A stretch of DNA of 64,000 bases from Candidatus Moraniibacteriota bacterium. GTDB lineage: Bacteria > Patescibacteriota > Minisyncoccia > Moranbacterales > GWC2-37-73. A model generated the notes under the pieces. It had not been told where the DNA came from, did not search any database, and saw nothing but the letters and a program-made list of their open reading frames with translations. Shown piece by piece: positions 11,088 to 43,089 of the stretch. Where the stretch lies: the NCBI GenBank assembly GCA_003507445.1, contig DNVR01000019.1, forward strand, positions 1,367-65,366, in the 5' to 3' direction. The translations under genes were made by a program, and so were the position numbers. Within the stretch, counting starts at the first letter, position 1. Each line of letters starts with the position of its first letter.

Positions 11088-11897
11088 ATGACAAAATTCA
11101 GTGAAAGTATTATTGGCAAAATCAAGTGCGAGCACATCGCTCCTGTTCCAAGGTGGCATTTTTTGCTTAAGGGTGGTGTTTTTTGGACACTCTTTGGATT
11201 TTCGATGATATTAGGAAGTCTTTCTTTTAGTGTTATTGTGCATATTGTGAGATCCGGAGATTTTGGAGTTTGCGATCATTTGCAAGGAAATTTAATAACT
11301 TCAGCCGTGATGCTCCTTCCTTATTTCTGGCTCGTTTTCCTAACCCTTTTTATAATAGTTGCTTATATTAACTGGAAATGTACCAAGAATGGATATCGCT
11401 TTAGAAGGCGTTGGATAATTTTAGTTGGGATATTGCTCAGTATCATTTTCGGCATTATTTTTTATGCCATTGGAATGGCAACAAAAGTTGATAATTTGAT
11501 GACCAAAACCATTCCTCTCTATGACATATCAAAACATAATGCACGTAAGGAGCTTTGGCTTCAACCTGAAAGTGGTTTGCTTATTGGAAAAATTATTGAA
11601 ATAGATGAGGTTGAAGAAAAAATTGTTCTTAAGGATGAAGAAGGAAGGGAATGGATTGTTGCGGACAGGGCTGTTGGTTGGGAGGATGATGACTTAGAAA
11701 GAAAGGGAAAGATTATTAAGGTTGTTGGCAAAAAAATAGGAGAATCTGAATTTGAAGCCAATGAAATTAGGAGATGTAATGATTGCCAAGACGATGAAGA
11801 TATGGGAGAAGTTGATGAAGAATTGGCGAAAAAAGAAGCTTCTAAGAATACCCATCGAAATATTATTATAGACGAGGAGGATTCAAGAGAAGAATAA
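11088..11897 (+). CDS. Membrane protein, putative anti-sigma factor partner of the upstream sigma gene.
   Basis: Immediately downstream of the ECF-like sigma gene. Has a cytoplasmic N-terminus, transmembrane helices and an acidic, Cys-containing C-terminus. Confidence 0.4.
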   Translation: MTKFSESIIGKIKCEHIAPVPRWHFLLKGGVFWTLFGFSMILGSLSFSVIVHIVRSGDFGVCDHLQGNLITSAVMLLPYFWLVFLTLFIIVAYINWKCTKNGYRFRRRWIILVGILLSIIFGIIFYAIGMATKVDNLMTKTIPLYDISKHNARKELWLQPESGLLIGKIIEIDEVEEKIVLKDEEGREWIVADRAVGWEDDDLERKGKIIKVVGKKIGESEFEANEIRRCNDCQDDEDMGEVDEELAKKEASKNTHRNIIIDEEDSREE

Positions 11898-11912
11898 GAT
11901 TGGTTTTTTTTC

Positions 11913-13088
11913 TTATTTTATCAATTCAGTTTTTTCTAATGCTTGCTTGATTAGTGTTGGAATGTCCAATTCTTTTTCTGCTTCTAAAACCTCCCAAAGT
12001 TTTGCTCGCGTTTCTGGTTTTTTGGGCATCAAACGAGTGCAGCAATCATCATGAGGTTGAATGGAAATATCGTAAGTGCCAATAGTCTTGGCTTTTTGCA
12101 TAATTTCTTCTTTGTCCACTCCGATTAGCGGTCTAAAAATTGGTAAAGTTGCAGCCTCGCTCACTGCTAAAATGTTTTCGAGTGTTTGCGAAGCTACTTG
12201 TCCGATTGAATCTCCCGTGATGAGTGCCAAGCACTTTTCTTTTTTAGCAAGAACTTCGGCAATGCGAATCATCATTCGGCGATAAAGAATTACGCGAAAT
12301 CTTTCCGGAGTTTTCATCATAATTTCTTTTTGCACGTCGGCAAATGGAATTAGATATAATCTGGTGGAGCTGCCAAATTTTTTAAGTTCTTGAGAAAGTG
12401 CGATTACTTTTTCTATGGAAGCTTTGGATGTGTATGGTGCGCTGTGAAAATGAGCATAGCGAAGTTGCACTCCGCGCCTGAGTATTTGAAAAGCGGCCAC
12501 GGGAGAATCAAATCCGCCAGAAAGCATCGCCATAGCTTTGTTTCCAGTGCCAACTGGCATCCCGCCAATCCCAGAAATTTTTTCAAGCGATACAAGTGCA
12601 AACTCATTAAGAATAAAAATTTTGCATTCGCAGTCGGGGTTTTTCATGCTGACCGATTTTTCTCCGTTCAATTTATCATAAATATATCCCCCAACTTCGC
12701 GATTGATTTCCTCTGAAGTCATTGGAAAATTTTTATTGGATCTTTGCGTTGTCACGCGGAAAGTTTCAAATTTTTCTTTGCTCATCATCTTCCAACAGAA
12801 AGTTTTTAAGGTCTCAATGTCTTGTGGAACACTGGTTGCGAAAGAAAAATTAGCAATACCAGGGGTATGCATCAGTGCGTTTTTAATCTCATTTGGATTT
12901 TTGAGACCATTCTCATTTAATTTAATCAAGATCCCACCAGACATTTTTTTAACATAGTCAAAACCACTCGGACAAAAATTGTTGAGTTGAGATTTGATAT
13001 TTTCAATCAATTGCTTCTCAAAGAAGTTGCGATTTCCGCCTTTGAGGGCAATTTCACCATAATGTATGAGAATGTGATCTTGTTTCAT
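11913..13088 (-). CDS. thiI: tRNA 4-thiouridine synthase / tRNA sulfurtransferase.
   Basis: THUMP-like N-terminus and PP-loop AMAMLSGGFDSPVAAF. Confidence 0.85.
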   Translation of the reverse strand: MKQDHILIHYGEIALKGGNRNFFEKQLIENIKSQLNNFCPSGFDYVKKMSGGILIKLNENGLKNPNEIKNALMHTPGIANFSFATSVPQDIETLKTFCWKMMSKEKFETFRVTTQRSNKNFPMTSEEINREVGGYIYDKLNGEKSVSMKNPDCECKIFILNEFALVSLEKISGIGGMPVGTGNKAMAMLSGGFDSPVAAFQILRRGVQLRYAHFHSAPYTSKASIEKVIALSQELKKFGSSTRLYLIPFADVQKEIMMKTPERFRVILYRRMMIRIAEVLAKKEKCLALITGDSIGQVASQTLENILAVSEAATLPIFRPLIGVDKEEIMQKAKTIGTYDISIQPHDDCCTRLMPKKPETRAKLWEVLEAEKELDIPTLIKQALEKTELIK

Positions 13089-35927: not shown

Positions 35928-36032
35928 AAGTATGGTATTATTGTAGTATTCAACTTCCAATTAATGGCTTTGGGACACAATAATTTTCAGACGTTTCGCG
36001 TAGTAGTAATAATCGTTAAGCGATTTTACCAT

Positions 36033-36806
36033 ATGGCAACGAAAATGAAAAGCCTAATCAAAAAGCCGATTTTGCGCAGCACTGCGCTTTTGCAAGGCGC
36101 TGCCAAACAACCAATTCTCTTTAGACGTAAGAACGATTTGTCCTGGAAAAATTCTGATTCGCAGACAATTCTGAAAGAAGTTTTGGTGCAACAAGACAGC
36201 CCAATTTTTTTCAGAAGAAATGCTGATTTGGATCGCTTGAAAGATTTGAGCGACAATGATCTTATCGTTGTTATCCGCGCGCAAAACAGGGAAGCATACA
36301 AGGAACTTTTTGCTCGTTATCAAAAAAAACTCTTCGTCTATATTTTTCATTTGGTTGGAAACAGAGATGAAACTGAGGATATTTTGCAGAATGTTTTTTC
36401 CAAGACATATAAAAGCATTGAACATTTTGATACTGCACGAAAATTTTCTTCTTGGATATATCGTATCGCGCACAACGAGTCAGTGAATTTTTTGAAAAGA
36501 AAAAGCAAGAGATATACAGTTTCTTGGGATGACATTTCAACAAGCAAGGACAAATTGGACACAGCAACAAATGAAGAGCGACCTGAAGAAAAAATGGAGC
36601 ATCAAGAAATCGTGAAAGAAATAGACTACGCTTTGAAAAAAATTCCTGCAAGGTATCAAAAAGTTTTGCAGATGCGATATTTTGACGAATATTCTTACGA
36701 AGAAATTGGAAAAATTCTCAAAAAACCCGTTAACACAGTCGGAACACTCATCAATAGAGCCAAAAAGAAGCTGCTTGAAGTGGTGCAGGAAGAAGAGCGA
36801 AAATAG
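36033..36806 (+). CDS. RNA polymerase sigma factor, sigma-70/ECF-like, with N-terminal extension.
   Basis: Region 2 ILQNVFSKTYKSIEHFDTARKFSSWIYRIAHNESVNFLKR; region 4 YEEIGKILKKPVNTVGTLINRAKKKL. Divergent from tsaD. Confidence 0.75.
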   Translation: MATKMKSLIKKPILRSTALLQGAAKQPILFRRKNDLSWKNSDSQTILKEVLVQQDSPIFFRRNADLDRLKDLSDNDLIVVIRAQNREAYKELFARYQKKLFVYIFHLVGNRDETEDILQNVFSKTYKSIEHFDTARKFSSWIYRIAHNESVNFLKRKSKRYTVSWDDISTSKDKLDTATNEERPEEKMEHQEIVKEIDYALKKIPARYQKVLQMRYFDEYSYEEIGKILKKPVNTVGTLINRAKKKLLEVVQEEERK

Positions 36807-36893
36807 TTAAACTATTGATTTATTTTTTGTTTGTGTTAAACTATCCACTGTTACTGTTTTAAAGGCTTTTTGAGCTTTTTTTATTTAAATAAT

Positions 36894-36965
36894 GGCGCCA
36901 TCGTCTAGTGGTTAGGACACCAGGTTTTCATCCTGGTAACAGGGGTCCGATTCCCCTTGGCGCTA
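36894..36965 (+). tRNA. tRNA-Glu(TTC).
   Basis: GGCGCCATCGTCTAGTGGTTAGGAC...CCAGGTTTTCATCCTGG...GGGGTCCGATTCCCCTTGGCGCTA. Confidence 0.8.
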
Positions 36966-36974
36966 CACTCTTCA

Positions 36975-37003
36975 AAAAGAGGCTTGTAAAGCCTCTTTTT
37001 TGT
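36975..37003 (+). terminator. Terminator after tRNA-Glu.
   Basis: AGAGGCTT-gta-AAGCCTCT followed by TTTTTT. Confidence 0.7.
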
Positions 37004-37102
37004 ATTGACTAATTAGCCAAAATATGCTATTCTTATGCGTTGTACCTGAACAAAAGAATATTCAATTCACATATTCCAAACAACCACGAAAAGGAGAATG
37101 TC

Positions 37103-37843
37103 ATGGACAAAAAATTAGTGGAAAAGAGAAATTCTTTCATTACAGTAGCGGTTGAAAATGCATCCCTTCAAGCACTTGTTGCACTCGTGCTTGCGCCTGC
37201 CACAATGGCGCAGAAAGTCGACAATGAAATCAAGAAAAGGATTTCTGAAGACGGAAACGATTGCAAGGAAATTCCTCACTGGATTAAACTTTTCACTTCG
37301 ATGGGTTCAACACTTGCAGACACGCACACGAAAGATTTCTTCAAGGTTCTTCACGATAGTGACTATGCCTTCTCCATGATTGACCTGAAAAACTTTCTGT
37401 TTGCCTTCGGCATCGGAAGGAGCCACAGCGACAAGGTCAACAAGCTTTTCCTTCAGCACGAACACACCAGCGAAAGTGATATACTCGAAGTTATCGACAA
37501 ACTTTCGCCCATGAGCCGTGAGTATTTTTTCAAGAAATACCTGCCCGAAGGACGACTTTCAAGACTTGGTTATGCTCACTGCATGAAGTACCGAGAAATT
37601 GGCAGTGACGCTATGAAAAGTTTCGAAAGTATATCCAGTGAAAATGATGACATGGAAGAGTTGAAGAAGCACATGCTCGCAGCTCTCTGCAACAGGGACA
37701 TCCACGAGAATGTCTTCGATTTCATGCTCACACTGAAAATGCTTTCGCGGGAGGAAGTGACTGCTCTCTCCGAGCAAGACGGTATGAAACAGCTCGCGAA
37801 ACGCGCTCTAAAAAACAATTTGGAACCTCGTGAAGAGGATTAG
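37103..37843 (+). CDS. Hypothetical protein, 247 aa, first gene of the tRNA-Glu islet.
   Basis: RBS AAAGGAGAA before the ATG; GC about 45%; no recognisable motifs. Confidence 0.45.
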   Translation: MDKKLVEKRNSFITVAVENASLQALVALVLAPATMAQKVDNEIKKRISEDGNDCKEIPHWIKLFTSMGSTLADTHTKDFFKVLHDSDYAFSMIDLKNFLFAFGIGRSHSDKVNKLFLQHEHTSESDILEVIDKLSPMSREYFFKKYLPEGRLSRLGYAHCMKYREIGSDAMKSFESISSENDDMEELKKHMLAALCNRDIHENVFDFMLTLKMLSREEVTALSEQDGMKQLAKRALKNNLEPREED

Positions 37844-37857
37844 AAAGGGAGAGCATT

Positions 37858-38541
37858 ATGGAAAATAATCTTAAAGGATATGTGAAATTTACCCATGCCA
37901 TTATTGGCAAATATTCCGATGAAGACATGCTTCCCATAAGGGAGCACGACATCCACGCTATCGAAGAACTTCTATCCTCACGGCTCGGAGAAAAACACAT
38001 CAAGGTTTTACACATGAGCTTCGGACTTGATGGGCAGGAAGCAACACGGGCAGAAATTGCAGATATACTAAACATCTCGCAAAGTCGCGTAGGTCAGCTT
38101 GAAGAAAAAGCTTTGCGAATTCTTCGGCATCCTGCGAACAGCAATGTTTTCAAAAAGCTCTACAGGTCTCATTTGGAAGCAATAATAGCGCGTCAAAGAA
38201 AGGATTTGACAGAGGCATACAGCTCGCGAGATAGTGTCGAGAAAGAGCTGAACAAAACAAGGATGCTCAAGCAGTTGAATGAGGAAGCTCTATTTTGTAC
38301 AAACAGGGAGGTGTGGAAATCGCTTGTCCGCGACATGCACGAATACATCATAGAGGACATTCCGCATTTTTCCGTAAGAACCCAGAGATGTCTGAAAGAA
38401 AATAACATCATAAAGGTTCGGGATTTAGTTCGCAAGACAGAAGAAGACTTGCGCTCATTCCCACAGTTTGGAGCCAAGAGCTTCAATGAAGTGAAGGACT
38501 TCCTTTACCATGCTGGTCTTGAACTTTCAAAAGAAGAATAA
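37858..38541 (+). CDS. Fusion protein: sigma-70 region 4.2-like HTH at the N-terminus plus an RNAP alpha-subunit C-terminal-domain (alphaCTD)-like HhH domain at the C-terminus.
   Basis: N-terminal LGEKHIKVLHMSFGLDGQEATRAEIADILNISQSRVGQLEEKALRILRHP aligns to sigma-70 region 4.2 (...KVLRMRFG...RERIRQIEAKALRKLRHP). C-terminal SVRTQRCLKENNIIKVRDLVRKTEEDLRSFPQFGAKSFNEVKDFLYHAGLEL aligns to E. coli alphaCTD ([52 protein letters not shown]) at about 23/51 identities, including R265, G296, K298 and S299 equivalents. No sigma region 2. Confidence 0.6.
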   Translation: MENNLKGYVKFTHAIIGKYSDEDMLPIREHDIHAIEELLSSRLGEKHIKVLHMSFGLDGQEATRAEIADILNISQSRVGQLEEKALRILRHPANSNVFKKLYRSHLEAIIARQRKDLTEAYSSRDSVEKELNKTRMLKQLNEEALFCTNREVWKSLVRDMHEYIIEDIPHFSVRTQRCLKENNIIKVRDLVRKTEEDLRSFPQFGAKSFNEVKDFLYHAGLELSKEE

Positions 38542-38573
38542 ATGCATCAAACGGTTGCTTCAATAGAAGCTAC

Positions 38574-38601
38574 GACGACCCACCTAGAGGTCGTCTTTTT
38601 T
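38574..38601 (+). terminator. Terminator.
   Basis: GACGACC-cacctaga-GGTCGTC followed by TTTTTTT. Confidence 0.65.
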
Positions 38602-38607
38602 TATGTT

Positions 38608-38776
38608 CCATTCTTCACTGGCAGATGCAAAATACTCGTTTCAAGCATAAACTTCTGCAGTTTCAATTCTATTTCTAAACAAAGCCCACTCTTTTAACTC
38701 TTGAATTAAAGGGTTCCAAGAATTTCTAACTTGGGCTACACTCATAAAAAAGAGGTTATTTGAGGCCTCTTTTTTG
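38608..38776. repeat. ~170-bp repeat, copy 1; its 3' ~45 bp duplicate the tRNA-Glu 3' end plus terminator.
   Basis: CCATTCTTCACTGGCAGATGC...CTTGGGCTACACTCATAAAAAAGAGG...CCTCTTTTTTG. Matches 39627-39797 (about 75%) and TTGGCGCTACACTCTTCAAAAAGAGG... at 36957-37003. Confidence 0.7.
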
Positions 38777-38834
38777 TTTTGTCTCATTTTAGCTGGAATT
38801 TTTAACTGTTTGATGTTAACTTTATATTACAATT

Positions 38835-39599
38835 ATGAAGAATTTTATTATTTCGCCAATTGCAAAAAAAATTATAGTCCGCTTTAGCAATAAGTGCGTC
38901 ATCCTGCCATTGGATATTCAGGATAAGGTTGATGCTTATTGGGATGAACTTATCAAGAGTGGAAAAAATTATAAACGAGGAGAGGTTTTCACTGTGACAA
39001 AAAAAGAGGAATTTGAAGACCGTATTGATATTTTGGTTGAAAAAACTGATTATGCACATTACCTTTATTGTCAGAATATTGATGCTCTTGGAGAAAATGG
39101 AGTGCATATTATTCATACTGCGGCATTAGTGGAAACATCAGACGAAAAGATTATTTTTGGCAAGATGGGGAATCAAACTTCTCGCAGTGAAATACATCAG
39201 CTCTGTGGTGGTGGCATTGATAACAATGACTTGCGAGATGATATTTTTGACTTGAATCATAATATAAAAAAGGAACTCGAAGAAGAACTGGGCATCAATA
39301 TTGATGACAGTAAGCGAATTGAAACATTTGGACTTGCTTATTTTAAGGAGGGTGGTCCAACTAATAAGATGACCGTTACATATAAAGTAAAACTCAATGA
39401 AACAAGTGAGGAATTTATGGAAAAATACAATGAGTTTGTTTTGTATTTGAAGAAAAACAACAAACTGCCTGAGTTTGGAGATATTATTATCTTGAATAAA
39501 GATAAAAAATCTCTTAATGATTTTTTTAACAAAAATGATATTAGACTTGATGAATACATGAGACCCCTGTTTGAATATATTAGTAAACATAGCTTTTAG
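38835..39599 (+). CDS. Putative NUDIX-family hydrolase.
   Basis: Nudix-box-like GGGIDNNDLRDDIFDLNHNIKKELEEELGINI (Gx5Ex7-like...ELEEELG). Confidence 0.4.
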   Translation: MKNFIISPIAKKIIVRFSNKCVILPLDIQDKVDAYWDELIKSGKNYKRGEVFTVTKKEEFEDRIDILVEKTDYAHYLYCQNIDALGENGVHIIHTAALVETSDEKIIFGKMGNQTSRSEIHQLCGGGIDNNDLRDDIFDLNHNIKKELEEELGINIDDSKRIETFGLAYFKEGGPTNKMTVTYKVKLNETSEEFMEKYNEFVLYLKKNNKLPEFGDIIILNKDKKSLNDFFNKNDIRLDEYMRPLFEYISKHSF

Positions 39600-39626
39600 C
39601 TCAACCTTAAGTATTTTGCATAAATT

Positions 39627-39797
39627 CCATTCCTCACTGGCAGATATAGAATACTCATTTCAAGAATAAACATCGGCAGTTTCTAATTGTTTTCTGAATA
39701 TAGCCCATTCATTAAGCTCTTTAATAATAGGGTTCCAGTTCAACCTAACTTGGGCTACAAACAAAGAAATCTCCGCTTTAATGAGGGGATTTTTTGT
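39627..39797. repeat. ~170-bp repeat, copy 2.
   Basis: CCATTCCTCACTGGCAGATAT...CTTGGGCTACAAACAAAG...GAGGGGATTTTTTG. Confidence 0.7.
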
Positions 39798-39926
39798 TTG
39801 TCTTGCACCAAGAGTGGAATCGGACGGGTATTTTAAATAAAAAAAGGAGACCGCGTTAAGCAATCCCCGAAATGTTGTGAGCCCCATATTATGCCACAAC
39901 AAACACTTTGTGTGATGCCGATGGGG

Positions 39927-40457
39927 CTAGGCTTTCTTTGAAAATTTAACAGGGATGAGTTCCCCTGCACCGAGACGAAAATTTTTGTTGCCAATTATTT
40001 TCATCTCGACTCTTGGGTCAACTAGGCGTTGCAAACGCGCACAAGCGACGATAATATTTGCAAAAAAACTTGAAAACCCAAGTTGTGTTCCAACTGAGAA
40101 AATATAATCATTAAATTCTCGTTGAAACATAATCTTTTGAAAAACATTGAGATGATATTCTCGAGAAATAGTAAACCGAGACAACTCAACACAATTCAGT
40201 GGCAGGTTGCTGTGTTGTGGGAAAAGAAAATCCTCAACAGGCAACCTTGCTCTTCTGCGATCGATAAGACGACAGCCTCCAATAACTTGCTTGTCATACA
40301 TAATAATGTAGTGGCAGCAGTTGTTGGCGTCATATTTGTCTTTCTCTAATCGCTCCTCATTTTCTGGCTCTGCCTGCATCTCTTCAACATAGCGCTCATA
40401 ACGTATGCGAAAATATGCATTAATCATCGCCGGATCGTTTGTTAGAATAAATTGCAT
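39927..40457 (-). CDS. GNAT-fold N-acyltransferase (autoinducer-synthase/N-acyl amino acid synthase-like).
   Basis: YIIMYDKQVIGGCRLIDRR...CVELSRFTISREY pattern; GC about 45%. Confidence 0.4.
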   Translation of the reverse strand: MQFILTNDPAMINAYFRIRYERYVEEMQAEPENEERLEKDKYDANNCCHYIIMYDKQVIGGCRLIDRRRARLPVEDFLFPQHSNLPLNCVELSRFTISREYHLNVFQKIMFQREFNDYIFSVGTQLGFSSFFANIIVACARLQRLVDPRVEMKIIGNKNFRLGAGELIPVKFSKKA

Positions 40458-40630
40458 ATCAGCCTCCTTTTTTGAGTTTGCCTGACGGCAAACTTTTTAT
40501 AGGTGTAGGTGGCTGGTTACCCCTTTTTTAAGGTAACAAAACAGCATACTCCTATTTTGGGAATTTGTCAATAGCAAGCATTATTGATAAATCCTTGAAT
40601 AAAAGAGGTATTTAAGATATAATTAGGGAT

Positions 40631-41221
40631 ATGGAACAAACAGGACAATACATTTTTGAATTCTTGCGGCACTATGGCTATTGGGCAATGTTGCCTTTGA
40701 TGATTGTTGAAGGGCCAGTGGCGACTATTATTGCTGCGATGCTGGCGTCACTTGGCGCTTTTGCGTGGCCGGTGGTTTTGCTATTTTCAATTTTGGGGGA
40801 TATTATCGGAGACGTGCTTTTGTATGGAGCGGGGTATAAATGGGGAATTGGATTTGTGCGTGGATTTGGAAAATATATGGGAATCACGGAAAGTTTGGTT
40901 TTGAGGATGGAAAAATATTTTGAGGCTCACGGTGGTAAAACAATTTTTGCAGTCAAATCAACCACAGGGCTTTGTTGGGCAACCTTTGCAGCAGCTGGAA
41001 TTGTGAAAATGGATTTCAAAAAATTTGTGAAATATTCAATTCTTGGTGGTTTTGTTTGGAGTGGAACCTTGGTTGCAATGGGATATTTCTATGGTTATCT
41101 TTGGAAAGAAATGAAACAATATATCAGCTGGATTGGCTGGATCATTGCTGCTGTGGCAATCGTTTCTTTTATTGTCATCACGCTTTATAAAAAGAAACAG
41201 TCAGGGAAGTTTGTGGAGTAG
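40631..41221 (+). CDS. DedA/VTT-family membrane protein.
   Basis: GDIIGDVLLYGAGYKWG signature. Confidence 0.8.
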   Translation: MEQTGQYIFEFLRHYGYWAMLPLMIVEGPVATIIAAMLASLGAFAWPVVLLFSILGDIIGDVLLYGAGYKWGIGFVRGFGKYMGITESLVLRMEKYFEAHGGKTIFAVKSTTGLCWATFAAAGIVKMDFKKFVKYSILGGFVWSGTLVAMGYFYGYLWKEMKQYISWIGWIIAAVAIVSFIVITLYKKKQSGKFVE

Positions 41222-41290: not shown

Positions 41291-42037
41291 ATGACAGTCT
41301 TTTTTATTTTCCCTCATCCTGACGATGAAACGATTTTTGCTGGCGGAGTGATTCTGCGCCATCTTACTAATGGCGACAAAGTTGTTTGGGTTTGCGCCAG
41401 TTTTGGCGAGAGAGGAGGAGAGGCCACAAAAAGATCCCCAAAAAATTTTTATGAAATGTTCAGACTCGCGGGAAAATTTCCAATCTTATTGTTTGCACAA
41501 AAAGCTGTTGTTTATTGGTTGGGTATTTTCAGGAAGCCCAGTACAAGACTTGCTGAAACAAGAAAGAGAGAGGCAAAAGAAATTGCTGATAGGCTTGGAG
41601 TGAAAGATTTGATTTTCATGGAAATTTCAGATATGCGTTTTGGATGGAACAAGAAAAAAATTATTGAAAATCTGAAAAAATATATTAATGAAATGAAGCC
41701 GGATATTATTTATACGATGTTCTCCGATGGAATAACGGGACATCCTGATCATGTCGCACTTTCGAGTTGCGTTGTTCAGATTGTGCGTGAGGCCGAGGCG
41801 GCAGGGCCCAAATTATTTCTCACAACATTTTCAAATGAGATTATAGATAAATATAAGCTTCCACTTTTTGGAATGCCTGAAAAAAATATTTCCAAAATAG
41901 TTAAACTTTCACCTGTGGAACTTGCAAAGAAAAAACAATTAATCTCCCTTTATGCCAGTCAATCATATCTTTGGAAAATTTTCCTTGAAAAATATCCTGA
42001 AATTTTAGCAGTGGAATTTCTTGTTGAATATTGTTAA
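41291..42037 (+). CDS. PIG-L/LmbE-family N-acetylglucosaminyl deacetylase.
   Basis: FPHPDDETIFAGG and GHPDHVA motifs. Confidence 0.7.
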   Translation: MTVFFIFPHPDDETIFAGGVILRHLTNGDKVVWVCASFGERGGEATKRSPKNFYEMFRLAGKFPILLFAQKAVVYWLGIFRKPSTRLAETRKREAKEIADRLGVKDLIFMEISDMRFGWNKKKIIENLKKYINEMKPDIIYTMFSDGITGHPDHVALSSCVVQIVREAEAAGPKLFLTTFSNEIIDKYKLPLFGMPEKNISKIVKLSPVELAKKKQLISLYASQSYLWKIFLEKYPEILAVEFLVEYC

Positions 42038-42120
42038 TGAGCAGTACCATTGACTTTTTGCAGAATTAATTGTATTGTTTATCGTTCTTTTACATATCTA
42101 ATTTCAAGGGAGGATACACA

Positions 42121-43089
42121 ATGAAGATATTACTTTCGGATTGGCATCTGGCTCCTTTTCGGGTTGAGAAGTTTTTGACTCAAAAAAGGAATTTTATTGA
42201 AATAATTATCCAATATTTCGCAAAGAAATTTGAGGATAAAGAAAAAGAGGCAAAAATGCTTGAAAGCATCCGGCTTGTTGTAAAGAAGGAAAATATCAAA
42301 GTCGGATATTTCAACGGCGATTTTATGGAATCACGAAGAACTGAACGGGGCATGAACACAACGGAGGATTTGGAAAAGGCACTTGAATTGAAAGCATACA
42401 TCATGAAAAAACTCGGTTTGATATTGGCTTTTTTTAATCTTGGGAATCATGAATCTGGGTATGACTTGCCACTTTGCACTGATGCAGAGAAAGGTATTAA
42501 CTGGCAGGCCATAAAAAACTTCCTTGTTTTTACGGAAGCAGAAGAATTATATTGCTCATTTTATGAAGATAATTCCAAGCTTATTTTCGTGCCGTACATT
42601 TTTTCCGAAGAAAAGGCTCGCGACTTTGATCTTGATGCCGAGAAGAAAATATTTTTAGGCAGAATGAGAGAAGATCTCAAGGAAGATATTCCCACAATTT
42701 TATTGGTTCATGATCCTGATTCATTTGATGATGTTGAGTTGCTTGGATTGATTCGGGAAAATCGTGAAAAAATAAAATTTATATTCTTCGGACACTATCA
42801 TTCTTGGATAAACTTGTTTTTCATGAGAATCATGGTCAATGTTTATGGTAGAATTCTTCTTTTTCCTTTTAGGTGCTTTGTGGATCTGTTCTTCTTTGCG
42901 CTTACAAAGGGAGATGTACATATTGTCAGAGAATTGGGTATATATTTTCGAAAACGAAAAAATATACCAACGATCATAAGAGAATTGGGAGCCGTGCTTA
43001 TTCCTGCACCAACTGGTACGGTTGGTATCGGAGGCGGGTATTTGGTTCTTGACCTCGGAAAAGGAACATATGAAAAGAAAAAAATATGA
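42121..43089 (+). CDS. Calcineurin-like metallophosphoesterase.
   Basis: LVHDPDS and FFGHYHS motifs. RBS AAGGGAGGA before the internal ATG at 42121, so the ORF-track start at 42070 is probably too early. Confidence 0.55.
   Translation: MKILLSDWHLAPFRVEKFLTQKRNFIEIIIQYFAKKFEDKEKEAKMLESIRLVVKKENIKVGYFNGDFMESRRTERGMNTTEDLEKALELKAYIMKKLGLILAFFNLGNHESGYDLPLCTDAEKGINWQAIKNFLVFTEAEELYCSFYEDNSKLIFVPYIFSEEKARDFDLDAEKKIFLGRMREDLKEDIPTILLVHDPDSFDDVELLGLIRENREKIKFIFFGHYHSWINLFFMRIMVNVYGRILLFPFRCFVDLFFFALTKGDVHIVRELGIYFRKRKNIPTIIRELGAVLIPAPTGTVGIGGGYLVLDLGKGTYEKKKI

Follow-up and report, generated by a model that had tools for sequence, protein, structure and literature searches.

A 64-kb stretch of a Moranbacteria genome (candidate phyla radiation, CPR; mean GC 37.2%), referred to below as the window, contains an intact tRNA-Glu gene followed by two cargo islets, A and B, each of which ends in one copy of a direct repeat of about 135 nt. 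The two repeats are probably attR-type junction scars, left when elements encoding a large serine recombinase (LSR) integrated twice in succession at the tRNA-Glu gene's 3' end. Judged by homology, the minus strand of each repeat encodes the C-terminal tail native to such a recombinase (VAQVRNSWNPLIQELKEW...*) with its stop codon, and adds about 35 nt of 3' flank. The element family is widespread in CPR bacteria, and its junctions point to a bacterial serine-recombinase analogue of the self-partitioning integrases, one that targets the 3' ends of tRNA genes.

The repeat lies at 38606-38740 (repeat 1) and 39625-39759 (repeat 2), and the two copies align without a gap over 135 nt at 77.8% identity. 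The original prediction, made from the sequence of this stretch, had described a pair of ~170-bp repeats about 75% identical; the direct repeat itself is real. Both copies contain an open minus-strand frame of 32 codons plus the native stop, which falls at the same codon in each. Tail 1 (codons 38739->38641) translates as VAQVRNSWNPLIQELKEWALFRNRIETAEVYA* and continues into 35 nt of conserved 3' flank ending CTGCCAGTGAAGAATGGAAC; tail 2 (codons 39758->39660) translates as VAQVRLNWNPIIKELNEWAIFRKQLETADVYS*, again followed by 35 nt of 3' flank. Both peptides correspond to the C-terminal 33 residues of LSRs of full length (523 aa), for example the homologues P0008 and P0023, and a tblastn search of the window with the C-terminus of P0008 recovered 38739-38674 (77% over 22 aa, E = 3e-5) and, as a second match, 39791-39693. 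A profile of the two tail peptides matched only the two window open reading frames (ORFs) and one protein from a relative, P0003, whose contig (L009) has the same TsaD-sigma backbone as the window, with the unit inverted directly after the sigma factor gene. A scan of metagenomes with the tail pattern gave 3 matches, all at the syntenic locus or in LSR genes, and the same scan of a viral collection gave none. All nine of the orphan tails examined have an open frame, a stop near codon 33 and the W-N...E-L-x-E-W motif, the L030 copy being without the first conserved tryptophan.

The differences between tail 1 and tail 2 fall 9/3/13 by codon position, with pN/pS (the ratio of nonsynonymous to synonymous change) of 0.53, zero indels and the WN...ELxEW motif intact. 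A divergence of 22% that includes no indel and lies mostly at third positions suggests that the tails diverged inside functional genes, those of two related elements, and not by decay in place. The conserved module also has a recognizable end: the motif CTGCCA-N6-8-(G)AATGGAAC occurs about 40 nt past the recombinase stop, at 38606-38625 and 39625-39644 in the window and at the equivalent positions in L009, L010 and L023 (L numbers denote related loci and contigs). It is kept in orphan tails and in free elements alike, and may be a protein-binding or regulatory site.

The last ~45 bp of each repeat had originally been read as a copy of the tRNA 3' end and its terminator, as in a classic tRNA-targeting element. 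The repeat is instead the severed 3' end of an LSR gene, and the part that resembles the tRNA amounts to 11 nt with a 1-nt deletion (CTTGG-GCTACA versus CTTGGCGCTACA in the tRNA), embedded in recombinase coding sequence. The repeat thus does not functionally re-create the tRNA 3' end. The resemblance does extend into the flank of repeat 1: the tRNA end with its flank (36955-37014) aligns with the end of repeat 1 and its flank (38729-38788) at a local score of 36, against 8.8 +/- 1.6 (maximum 17) for shuffled sequences, and no other part of the window gives a better match. Repeat 2 has only CTTGGGCTACA in common with the tRNA end, and a different terminator follows it. Of the two copies, only repeat 1 has behind it a terminator that resembles the flank the tRNA has now; repeat 2, contrary to the earlier statement, is followed by the ancestral, native one (see below).

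Other readings of the repeat were tried and rejected. An RNA gene or riboswitch was sought with Rfam in E-value mode over 36000-41000, which gave the tRNA and sub-threshold noise only. As for a tRNA-like or split-tRNA structure, the repeat can be fitted to no acceptor/T-arm register and contains nothing that ARAGORN calls. Recoding of UGA was considered as similarity runs past an in-frame TGA, but ValRS (valyl-tRNA synthetase) and other long genes are uninterrupted under table 11; the TGA is the native stop of the recombinase, and the sequence beyond it is the conserved 3' flank.

The origin of the tail is seen in the recombinase family itself, which exists in two protein forms. Homologues of the L010 recombinase number 910 at E <= 1e-30, and the C-termini of the best 120 of these were classed. 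A peptide antisense to a tRNA (...LVAPRGIEPLLPG*, ...LVAPRG(I/V)EP...) ends 100 of the 120 (median length 506 aa), the native tail ...LV.QVRNSWNQLIxELKEW... ends 15 (median 528 aa), and the other 5 end otherwise. In integrated copies the tail is gone, and the gene reads about 12 codons into the antisense strand of the tRNA (...VAPRGIGPLLPG*). The L010 element, of about 5 kb, consists of a tail (12051, plus strand), an ImmA/XRE pair, small membrane proteins and a 503-aa LSR, the last 12 codons of which (VAPRGIGPLLPG*) are the antisense of the tRNA-Glu 3' end. The L010 and L013 proteins match Resolvase (6e-32), Recombinase (1e-11) and Zn_ribbon_recom (1e-7) in Pfam, and the integrase family of PHROGs (5e-83). 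The integrated form is found at tRNA-Glu in L010, L025 and L026 and at tRNA-Arg(UCU) in L024; in each the LSR ORF overlaps the tRNA 3' end in antisense, and an orphan tail lies 4-6 kb upstream in the same orientation. At tRNA-Arg(UCU) in L024 (region 11475-12829) two recombinase families meet, the serine-recombinase element at the 3' end and a tyrosine integrase gene on the 5' side.

In the free form (L019, L020 and L023) the gene instead reads contiguously through ...KSSLVPQVRNSWNQLI...*. The 6,639-nt contig L023 has ends that overlap by 127 nt, and L022 matches it at 100% identity as a circular permutation, which implies a circle of about 6.5 kb with a full LSR gene. In L019 a full 523-aa LSR gene is followed by a GP3_package gene. 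An AlphaFold2 (AF2) model of full-length P0008, built with 102 homologues, has a mean predicted local distance difference test score (pLDDT) of 89.8, with helices at 340-387 and 393-436 and the tail as a C-terminal helix (499-522). The best Foldseek matches of the model in the PDB are the SPbeta-type integrase structures 9dxd/9dxh (E = 6e-20), Bxb1 (9iu2), PhiC31 (9rah) and LI (4kis); in its overall fold the model thus resembles the large serine integrases of known structure, and the long coiled-coil hairpin is part of the resemblance. By source name or record title, the family has members in Moranbacteria, Kaiserbacteria, Paceibacteria and further CPR bacteria of the Parcubacteria group, and the presence of TsaD and of a sigma-70 factor, together with the Moranbacteria/Parcubacteria record titles, marks the hosts as bacteria. 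The window itself lacks the Resolvase, Recombinase and zinc ribbon domains; as had been noted originally, there is no integrase in either islet, and searches with Pfam and tblastn found no LSR body or integrase anywhere in the 64 kb.

The positions at which the tails are joined to other sequences can be followed in the layout of the locus (window coordinates):

36894..36965/6, plus strand: intact tRNA-Glu(UUC) gene, confirmed by ARAGORN and by the Rfam tRNA model at 63.2 bits
36962-36966, plus strand: putative attB crossover core in the last tRNA bases (GCTA, plus C at +1)
36967..37033, plus strand: left arm of islet A, with ACTC, a hairpin/T-run terminator (~36970-37001) and a promoter-like TTGACT-17-TATTCT (37005-37033)
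37103..37843, plus strand: A1, 246-aa hypothetical protein, cargo of islet A
37858..38541, plus strand: A2, 227-aa protein, cargo of islet A, a fusion of Sigma70_r4 with an RNA polymerase alpha C-terminal domain (alpha-CTD)-like part
38574-38601: terminator of A2
38606..38740, minus strand: orphan recombinase tail 1 (repeat 1), putative P arm of attP, right end of islet A; core GCTAC at 38735-38739
38741..38792, plus strand: left arm of islet B, with ACTC, a terminator (38744-38777) and some short flanking sequence; a homologue of islet A's left arm
38835..39599, plus strand: B, 254-aa hypothetical protein from the ORF list, cargo of islet B, 32% GC
39625..39759, minus strand: orphan recombinase tail 2 (repeat 2), right end of islet B; core GCTAC at 39754-39758
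39760..39799, plus strand: native tRNA-Glu terminator, putative B' arm of attB, 2.8 kb from the tRNA owing to the two apparent insertions
39800..39830, minus strand: convergent pseudo-tRNA remnant of 31 nt, in which the T-loop and the 3' acceptor strand of tRNA-Glu are present as an inverted copy (minus-strand sequence GTCCGATTCCactCTTGGtGCaAgAC); part of the ancestral flank and of neither islet

The order 3' of tRNA-Glu is therefore a terminator and promoter-like site, A1, A2, a terminator, repeat 1, a terminator, B, repeat 2 and a terminator.

Relatives without the islets show what the site looked like before insertion. A scan for the sigma factor in one genome per species yielded 7 syntenic Moranbacteria/Parcubacteria loci, in which the backbone ValRS-TsaD-sigma...DedA-hydrolase-GT4-SOD is conserved and the tRNA-Glu interval ranges from 0.7 to 8.8 kb. 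The empty tRNA-Glu site that the original prediction proposed to look for is present in L011, L015 and L016, where tRNA-Glu is directly followed by a terminator. Tail 2 of the window continues into AACAAAGAAATCTCCGCTTTAATG..., which is the sequence directly after tRNA-Glu at the L011 empty site. The terminator at 39760-39799 is equal to the L011 empty-site terminator and 92% identical to L027 1565-1650. Because tail 2 is joined to this L011-type native flank, the entire stretch from the tRNA to 39759 is inserted relative to the ancestral state.

The same kind of comparison can be made for an intact element. On the recombinase-sense strand, the L015 empty site reads ...GTTTTTGTACTTGGTAGC|GCCAAGGGGAATCGG (also ...|GCCAAGGGG), that is, terminator flank followed by antisense tRNA. 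L010 has the L015-type flank joined to a tail, ...CTTGGTAGC|CCAAGTTAGAAATTC (core form ...TTGGTAGC|CCAAGTTAG), and the recombinase body joined to the tRNA, ...AAATCTTCTTTGGTAGC|GCCAAGGGG. The free attP in L019 is AAATCTTCTTTGGTACCCCAAGTTAGAAAC, with imperfect dyad symmetry, and the predicted attP contains ...AAATCTTCTTTGGTACCCCAAGTTAGAAA.... At both the L010/L015 and the window/L011 junctions the shared att core is only about 5-8 bp (GCTAC / TTGGTAGC). Every tail keeps CTTGG-GC and the tRNA keeps CTTGGCGC, which places the probable exchange 3' of tRNA position 69, within GCTAC (70-73, +1). A crossover at this position, deduced from the junction sequences, would explain how the tRNA survives without a long tRNA copy on the element. 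The tandem tRNA-Glu-targeting integrative elements proposed originally are thus borne out by the empty sites and by the intact elements in L010 and L026, but without the "classic" tyrosine-integrase signature of a long tRNA duplication.

The favoured history accounts for these junctions as follows. The attP would lie inside the recombinase gene, about 33 codons before the stop, and its recombination with attB (the last tRNA bases, core GCTAC) would leave the tRNA intact and append about 12 antisense-tRNA codons to the recombinase body. The native tail, made up of the predicted C-terminal helix with its stop codon and some 35 nt of flanking sequence, would be stranded at the far end of the element, beside the original terminator of the tRNA. 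Islet B would be the older insertion, and islet A would have followed at the tRNA, which was still intact; the ACTC arm that adjoins tail 1 is like the present flank of the tRNA, as expected from two related units inserted successively, B then A. Both islets would later have lost the recombinase body and the P' half-site, or would never have had them, and in this lineage they would by now be cargo that is fixed and no longer moves. Every contig that codes for the identical sigma (17 contigs) or A2 (20 contigs) protein has the same arrangement, and the islets thus appear fixed in this population.

The cargo gives few clues to function. A1 matches no Pfam, PHROG or PADLOC family, and only 5 homologues were found, the sole source-named one being from Moranbacteria. 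Homologues of A1 occur at the corresponding locus in L015, L027 and L030, in each case without a recombinase. In L030, A1 follows a direct copy of the tRNA 3' end within a pseudo-tRNA unit (a larger version of the 31-nt remnant; see below) and is closed by an intact tail; in L015 it lies between 160-bp direct repeats, with a degenerate tail; and in L027 it lies between the pseudo-tRNA and DedA, without a tail. A2 matches Sigma70_r4 (7e-11) and RNA_pol_A_CTD (8e-15) in Pfam. Similar fusions recur, with dozens of full-length relatives of 200-240 aa at 30-40% identity in a representative library, and as far as we can tell this architecture of sigma-70 region 4 plus alpha-CTD is recurring but undescribed. 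The gene of islet B had been called NUDIX-like, for which searches of Pfam, PHROGs, PADLOC and PDB sequences gave no support; they returned no family or structure match of any kind for B. A tblastn search found no match to B in the 16 related loci compared, and its single-sequence AF2 model (pLDDT 38.5) was unusable for a fold search.

The two islets have similar left arms (about 75% alike across some 55 nt). The arm of islet A contains no recombinase sequence, and aligns with 38741-38788. Compared by eye with the P' half-site of autonomous elements (the L010/L023 attP), the left arm shows no evident similarity, and nothing like the ACTC-terminator-promoter arm was found upstream of the L010 recombinase gene.

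Several of these observations weigh against a history of two simple LSR-element insertions. An autonomous element should abut the tRNA with its recombinase body, and neither islet has any trace of one. Both islets start with a similar ACTC-terminator-promoter arm, which would be unexpected after two independent deletions, and this arm, as just described, has no evident likeness by eye to an autonomous P' half-site. A1 with a tail and no recombinase sits at the pseudo-tRNA copy, not at the tRNA, in L030, and in L015 and L027 A1 occupies other positions of the locus; these placements argue that the history was more complex than two simple insertions. Recombination itself, like the crossover position, is deduced from sequence junctions, and the search for a recombinase in this organism covers the 64-kb window. 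A rival reading is that islets A and B are recombinase-less cassettes or satellites, mobilised in trans, now or recently, by a helper serine recombinase. A circularised islet would then have an attP-like site, its tail joined to the ACTC-terminator arm, and an integron-like array would have been built at tRNA-Glu. Such a process would fit the conserved ends, sharp boundaries and unrelated cargo of the two islets, the intact tails that keep the family motif, the scattered recombinase-less A1 units of L030, L015 (with its 160-bp direct repeats) and L027, and the occurrence, within related genomes and metagenomes, of circles and autonomous elements that belong to this family. It is nonetheless rather unlikely. 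Without a P'-like half-site in the left arm, attL would lack a proper half-site; the window encodes no helper; no circular or empty variant is found among the 17-20 contigs with identical proteins; and no free copy of a tail-ACTC arm turned up in the peptide search, which gave three relatives, or in the viral and metagenome pattern scans. The sharp inner boundary of the tail, moreover, coincides with the point where the conserved recombinase module stops in autonomous elements, and so needs no special explanation. For A1-type units, old remnants reshuffled by local recombination are favoured over cassettes moved in trans.

Integration might also have occurred only once, with the single ancestral scar then duplicated in place (for example by unequal crossing-over) and the cargo replaced later. 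The tails are alike and so are the left arms, and the 160-bp direct repeats in L015 show that large local duplications do occur at this locus. Even so, this is very improbable: the tails have diverged by 22% without an indel, with a third-position bias and with ORF, stop and motif kept, unlike the neutral decay of a non-coding duplicate; the cargo of the islets is unrelated and differs in GC (42.8% versus 31.6%); and tail 2 abuts the native terminator while tail 1 abuts an element-type arm. The last possibility is a generic intergenic repeat (similar to repetitive extragenic palindromic (REP) sequences or miniature inverted-repeat transposable elements (MITEs)) or a small RNA gene, with an incidental resemblance to the tRNA end; the original prediction had named a generic REP-like element as its own refutation. 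The repeats are indeed short, non-coding to gene callers and beside terminators, with weak sub-threshold Rfam matches nearby. However, each conserved repeat block has exactly two occurrences in the window (chance expectation for a 19-mer probe, 0.04), no Rfam family reaches threshold, the peptide search finds the same locus in relatives only, the metagenome and viral scans lead only to the syntenic locus and to recombinase genes, and the homology of the repeat to the LSR 3' end is unambiguous. A dispersed repeat or small RNA is effectively refuted, and two successive LSR-element integrations remain the preferred explanation.

The flank beyond the native terminator has a history of its own. In most relatives the 31-nt remnant of the window corresponds to a pseudo-tRNA unit of about 170 nt, placed between inverted and direct copies of the tRNA-Glu 3' end and convergent with tRNA-Glu across the shared terminator; L027 has two tandem copies. 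The units are located as follows:

L010: 11850-12012
L012: 11915-12062
L015: 11036-11235
L027: 1750-2090
L030: 130-275
L016: a fuller copy is also present

The remnant at 39800-39830 had also been considered as a tmRNA (transfer-messenger RNA)-like 5' end (GGAAUCGGACGGG), and this was rejected; the stretch is the reverse complement of the tRNA-Glu T-arm, which accounts for the resemblance, as the fuller copies in L010, L012 and L015 show. In L013 the recombinase is fused to the pseudo-tRNA unit and not to the real tRNA, which suggests that the pseudo-tRNA acts as a second attachment site. The core of tRNA-Glu, terminator and pseudo-tRNA, together with the region upstream of the tRNA that includes its promoter, is flipped in L010, L012, L013 and L026 relative to the window, L011, L015, L016 and L030, so that the tRNA has one of two placements, the sigma side on the plus strand or a position beside DedA on the minus strand. 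A simple inversion between the tRNA and the inverted pseudo-tRNA was considered and rejected, as the flip junctions fit no single crossover between those copies.

Two further structures were seen at the tRNA-Glu genes of relatives. In L011 (10941-11285) the 5' half of a second tRNA-Glu lies directly upstream of the intact tRNA, with a 30-nt hairpin inserted in the anticodon loop, and is followed by an ORF that is GIY-YIG-like by eye; the structure has the look of a partial tRNA gene duplication associated with an endonuclease. In L027 (1222-1570), to the left of the native terminator, there is a junction GGCTACA|AACAAAG, a divergent tail-like minus-strand peptide (VADKSIAWDTFEKTVIRWLDVF, by eye) and an 86-aa ORF. 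That ORF is terminase-like by eye, has no Pfam match, and is not claimed as a terminase. The structure possibly marks where another element, integrated at the same tRNA, ends in this close relative, the A1 protein of which is 91% identical to that of the window.

With respect to the surroundings of the array, an ECF (extracytoplasmic function)-type sigma factor gene ends 88 nt before tRNA-Glu, and after the third terminator come a minus-strand FeeM/GNAT-like gene and then a DedA-family gene. The islets had been described as GC-elevated. This is true of islet A, whose 42.8% ranks within the highest 6% of 1.6-kb windows but falls short of the 45% originally given, and untrue of islet B, at 31.6%, which is under the window mean. 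The GNAT-like gene, also described as GC-elevated, measures 39.4% and lies outside the att-bounded array; it is lineage-specific, like the PIG-L and metallophosphatase genes beyond it. The FeeM/GNAT-like acyltransferase (39927-40457), the PIG-L deacetylase (41291-42037) and the metallophosphatase (42070-43089) have no counterpart in the 7 syntenic relatives, and are further lineage-specific insertions on both sides of DedA.

Genome engineering relies heavily on serine integrases, the targets of which are usually described as protein-coding or intergenic sites. The recombinases of this family resemble those of PhiC31, Bxb1, SPbeta, A118/LI and TP901-1 in having Resolvase, Recombinase and zinc ribbon domains and a long helical hairpin, and resemble PhiC31/Bxb1-type integrases in their short att sites with imperfect dyad symmetry and a tiny common core. 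They differ in that the attP lies in the coding sequence of the enzyme itself, the target is a tRNA 3' end, and the last 33 residues (a predicted helix) are swapped for about 12 antisense-tRNA residues; the window holds the tails only. According to the Islander paper, targeting of tRNA genes was not known among integrases of the serine family (PMC4383910), and in a 2024 mycobacteriophage paper 10 of 13 M. smegmatis attB sites were used by tyrosine integrases, all of them overlapping tRNA or tmRNA genes (PMC10865867). Like Islander-type islands, the elements described here insert at a tRNA 3' end, preserve the tRNA and leave a displaced att fragment at the far end, and they likewise show tandem arrays, recombinase-less remnants and empty sites in relatives. 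Unlike those islands they use an LSR instead of a tyrosine integrase, share a core of about 5-8 bp where 30-45 bp of tRNA sequence is typical, and have a displaced fragment that is mostly recombinase coding sequence.

The closest parallels for an attachment site inside an element gene come from other enzyme families. A 2021 review assigned an attP inside its own integrase gene exclusively to archaeal tyrosine recombinases. In these SSV-type ("suicidal") integrases of archaeal viruses and plasmids, as here, the site lies in the enzyme's own gene and pieces of the gene flank the element at a tRNA; here, however, the recombinase is a bacterial serine recombinase, which loses just the final ~6% of its length and keeps its catalytic and DNA-binding domains intact. 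In mycobacteriophage BPs and its relatives the attP lies inside a phage ORF and integration alters the C-terminus of the protein (PMC4557955; PMC10865867). The integration-dependent immunity of BPs thus also involves distinct free and integrated protein forms, but its split gene is the repressor and its integrase is a tyrosine recombinase, whereas here the serine recombinase itself is split. Tycheposon arrays and satellites at tRNA hot spots resemble the present locus in having tandem cargo beside a tRNA that varies among close relatives, some of it without a recombinase; in Prochlorococcus tycheposons, Hackl et al. (preprint) reported tandem repeat junctions and a minority of LSR-bearing elements. 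Unlike those arrays, the islets of the window have a left junction without an obvious recombinase half-site. A literature search, incomplete in its coverage, found no description of a tRNA-targeting serine integrase family with attP in its own 3' end.

The LSR family described here inserts at tRNA 3' ends, at tRNA-Glu in 3 loci and at tRNA-Arg in 1. With attP inside the LSR gene, every integration would rewrite the C-terminus of the enzyme and leave a recognizable coding tail at the far junction, a simple bioinformatic marker with which such elements could be delimited in metagenome-assembled genomes. For tool development the family supplies attB sites that are both conserved and ubiquitous, and it is a natural experiment on the role of the extreme C-terminus of serine integrases. 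A broader proposal, which we regard as doubtful, combines two ideas, namely that the exchange of tails is a switch of state and that orphan tails are usable partners which make tRNA-Glu an integron-like platform. If the first were true, the free element would make a full-length integrase with the C-terminal helix and the integrated element a variant ending in a Pro/Gly-rich antisense-tRNA peptide, and the enzyme would be biased towards or against excision, without or alongside a directionality factor. If the second were true, tRNA-Glu would accrete and exchange cargo islets in reduced CPR genomes. The integration scars themselves would explain the hyper-variable interval in these otherwise syntenic, streamlined genomes.

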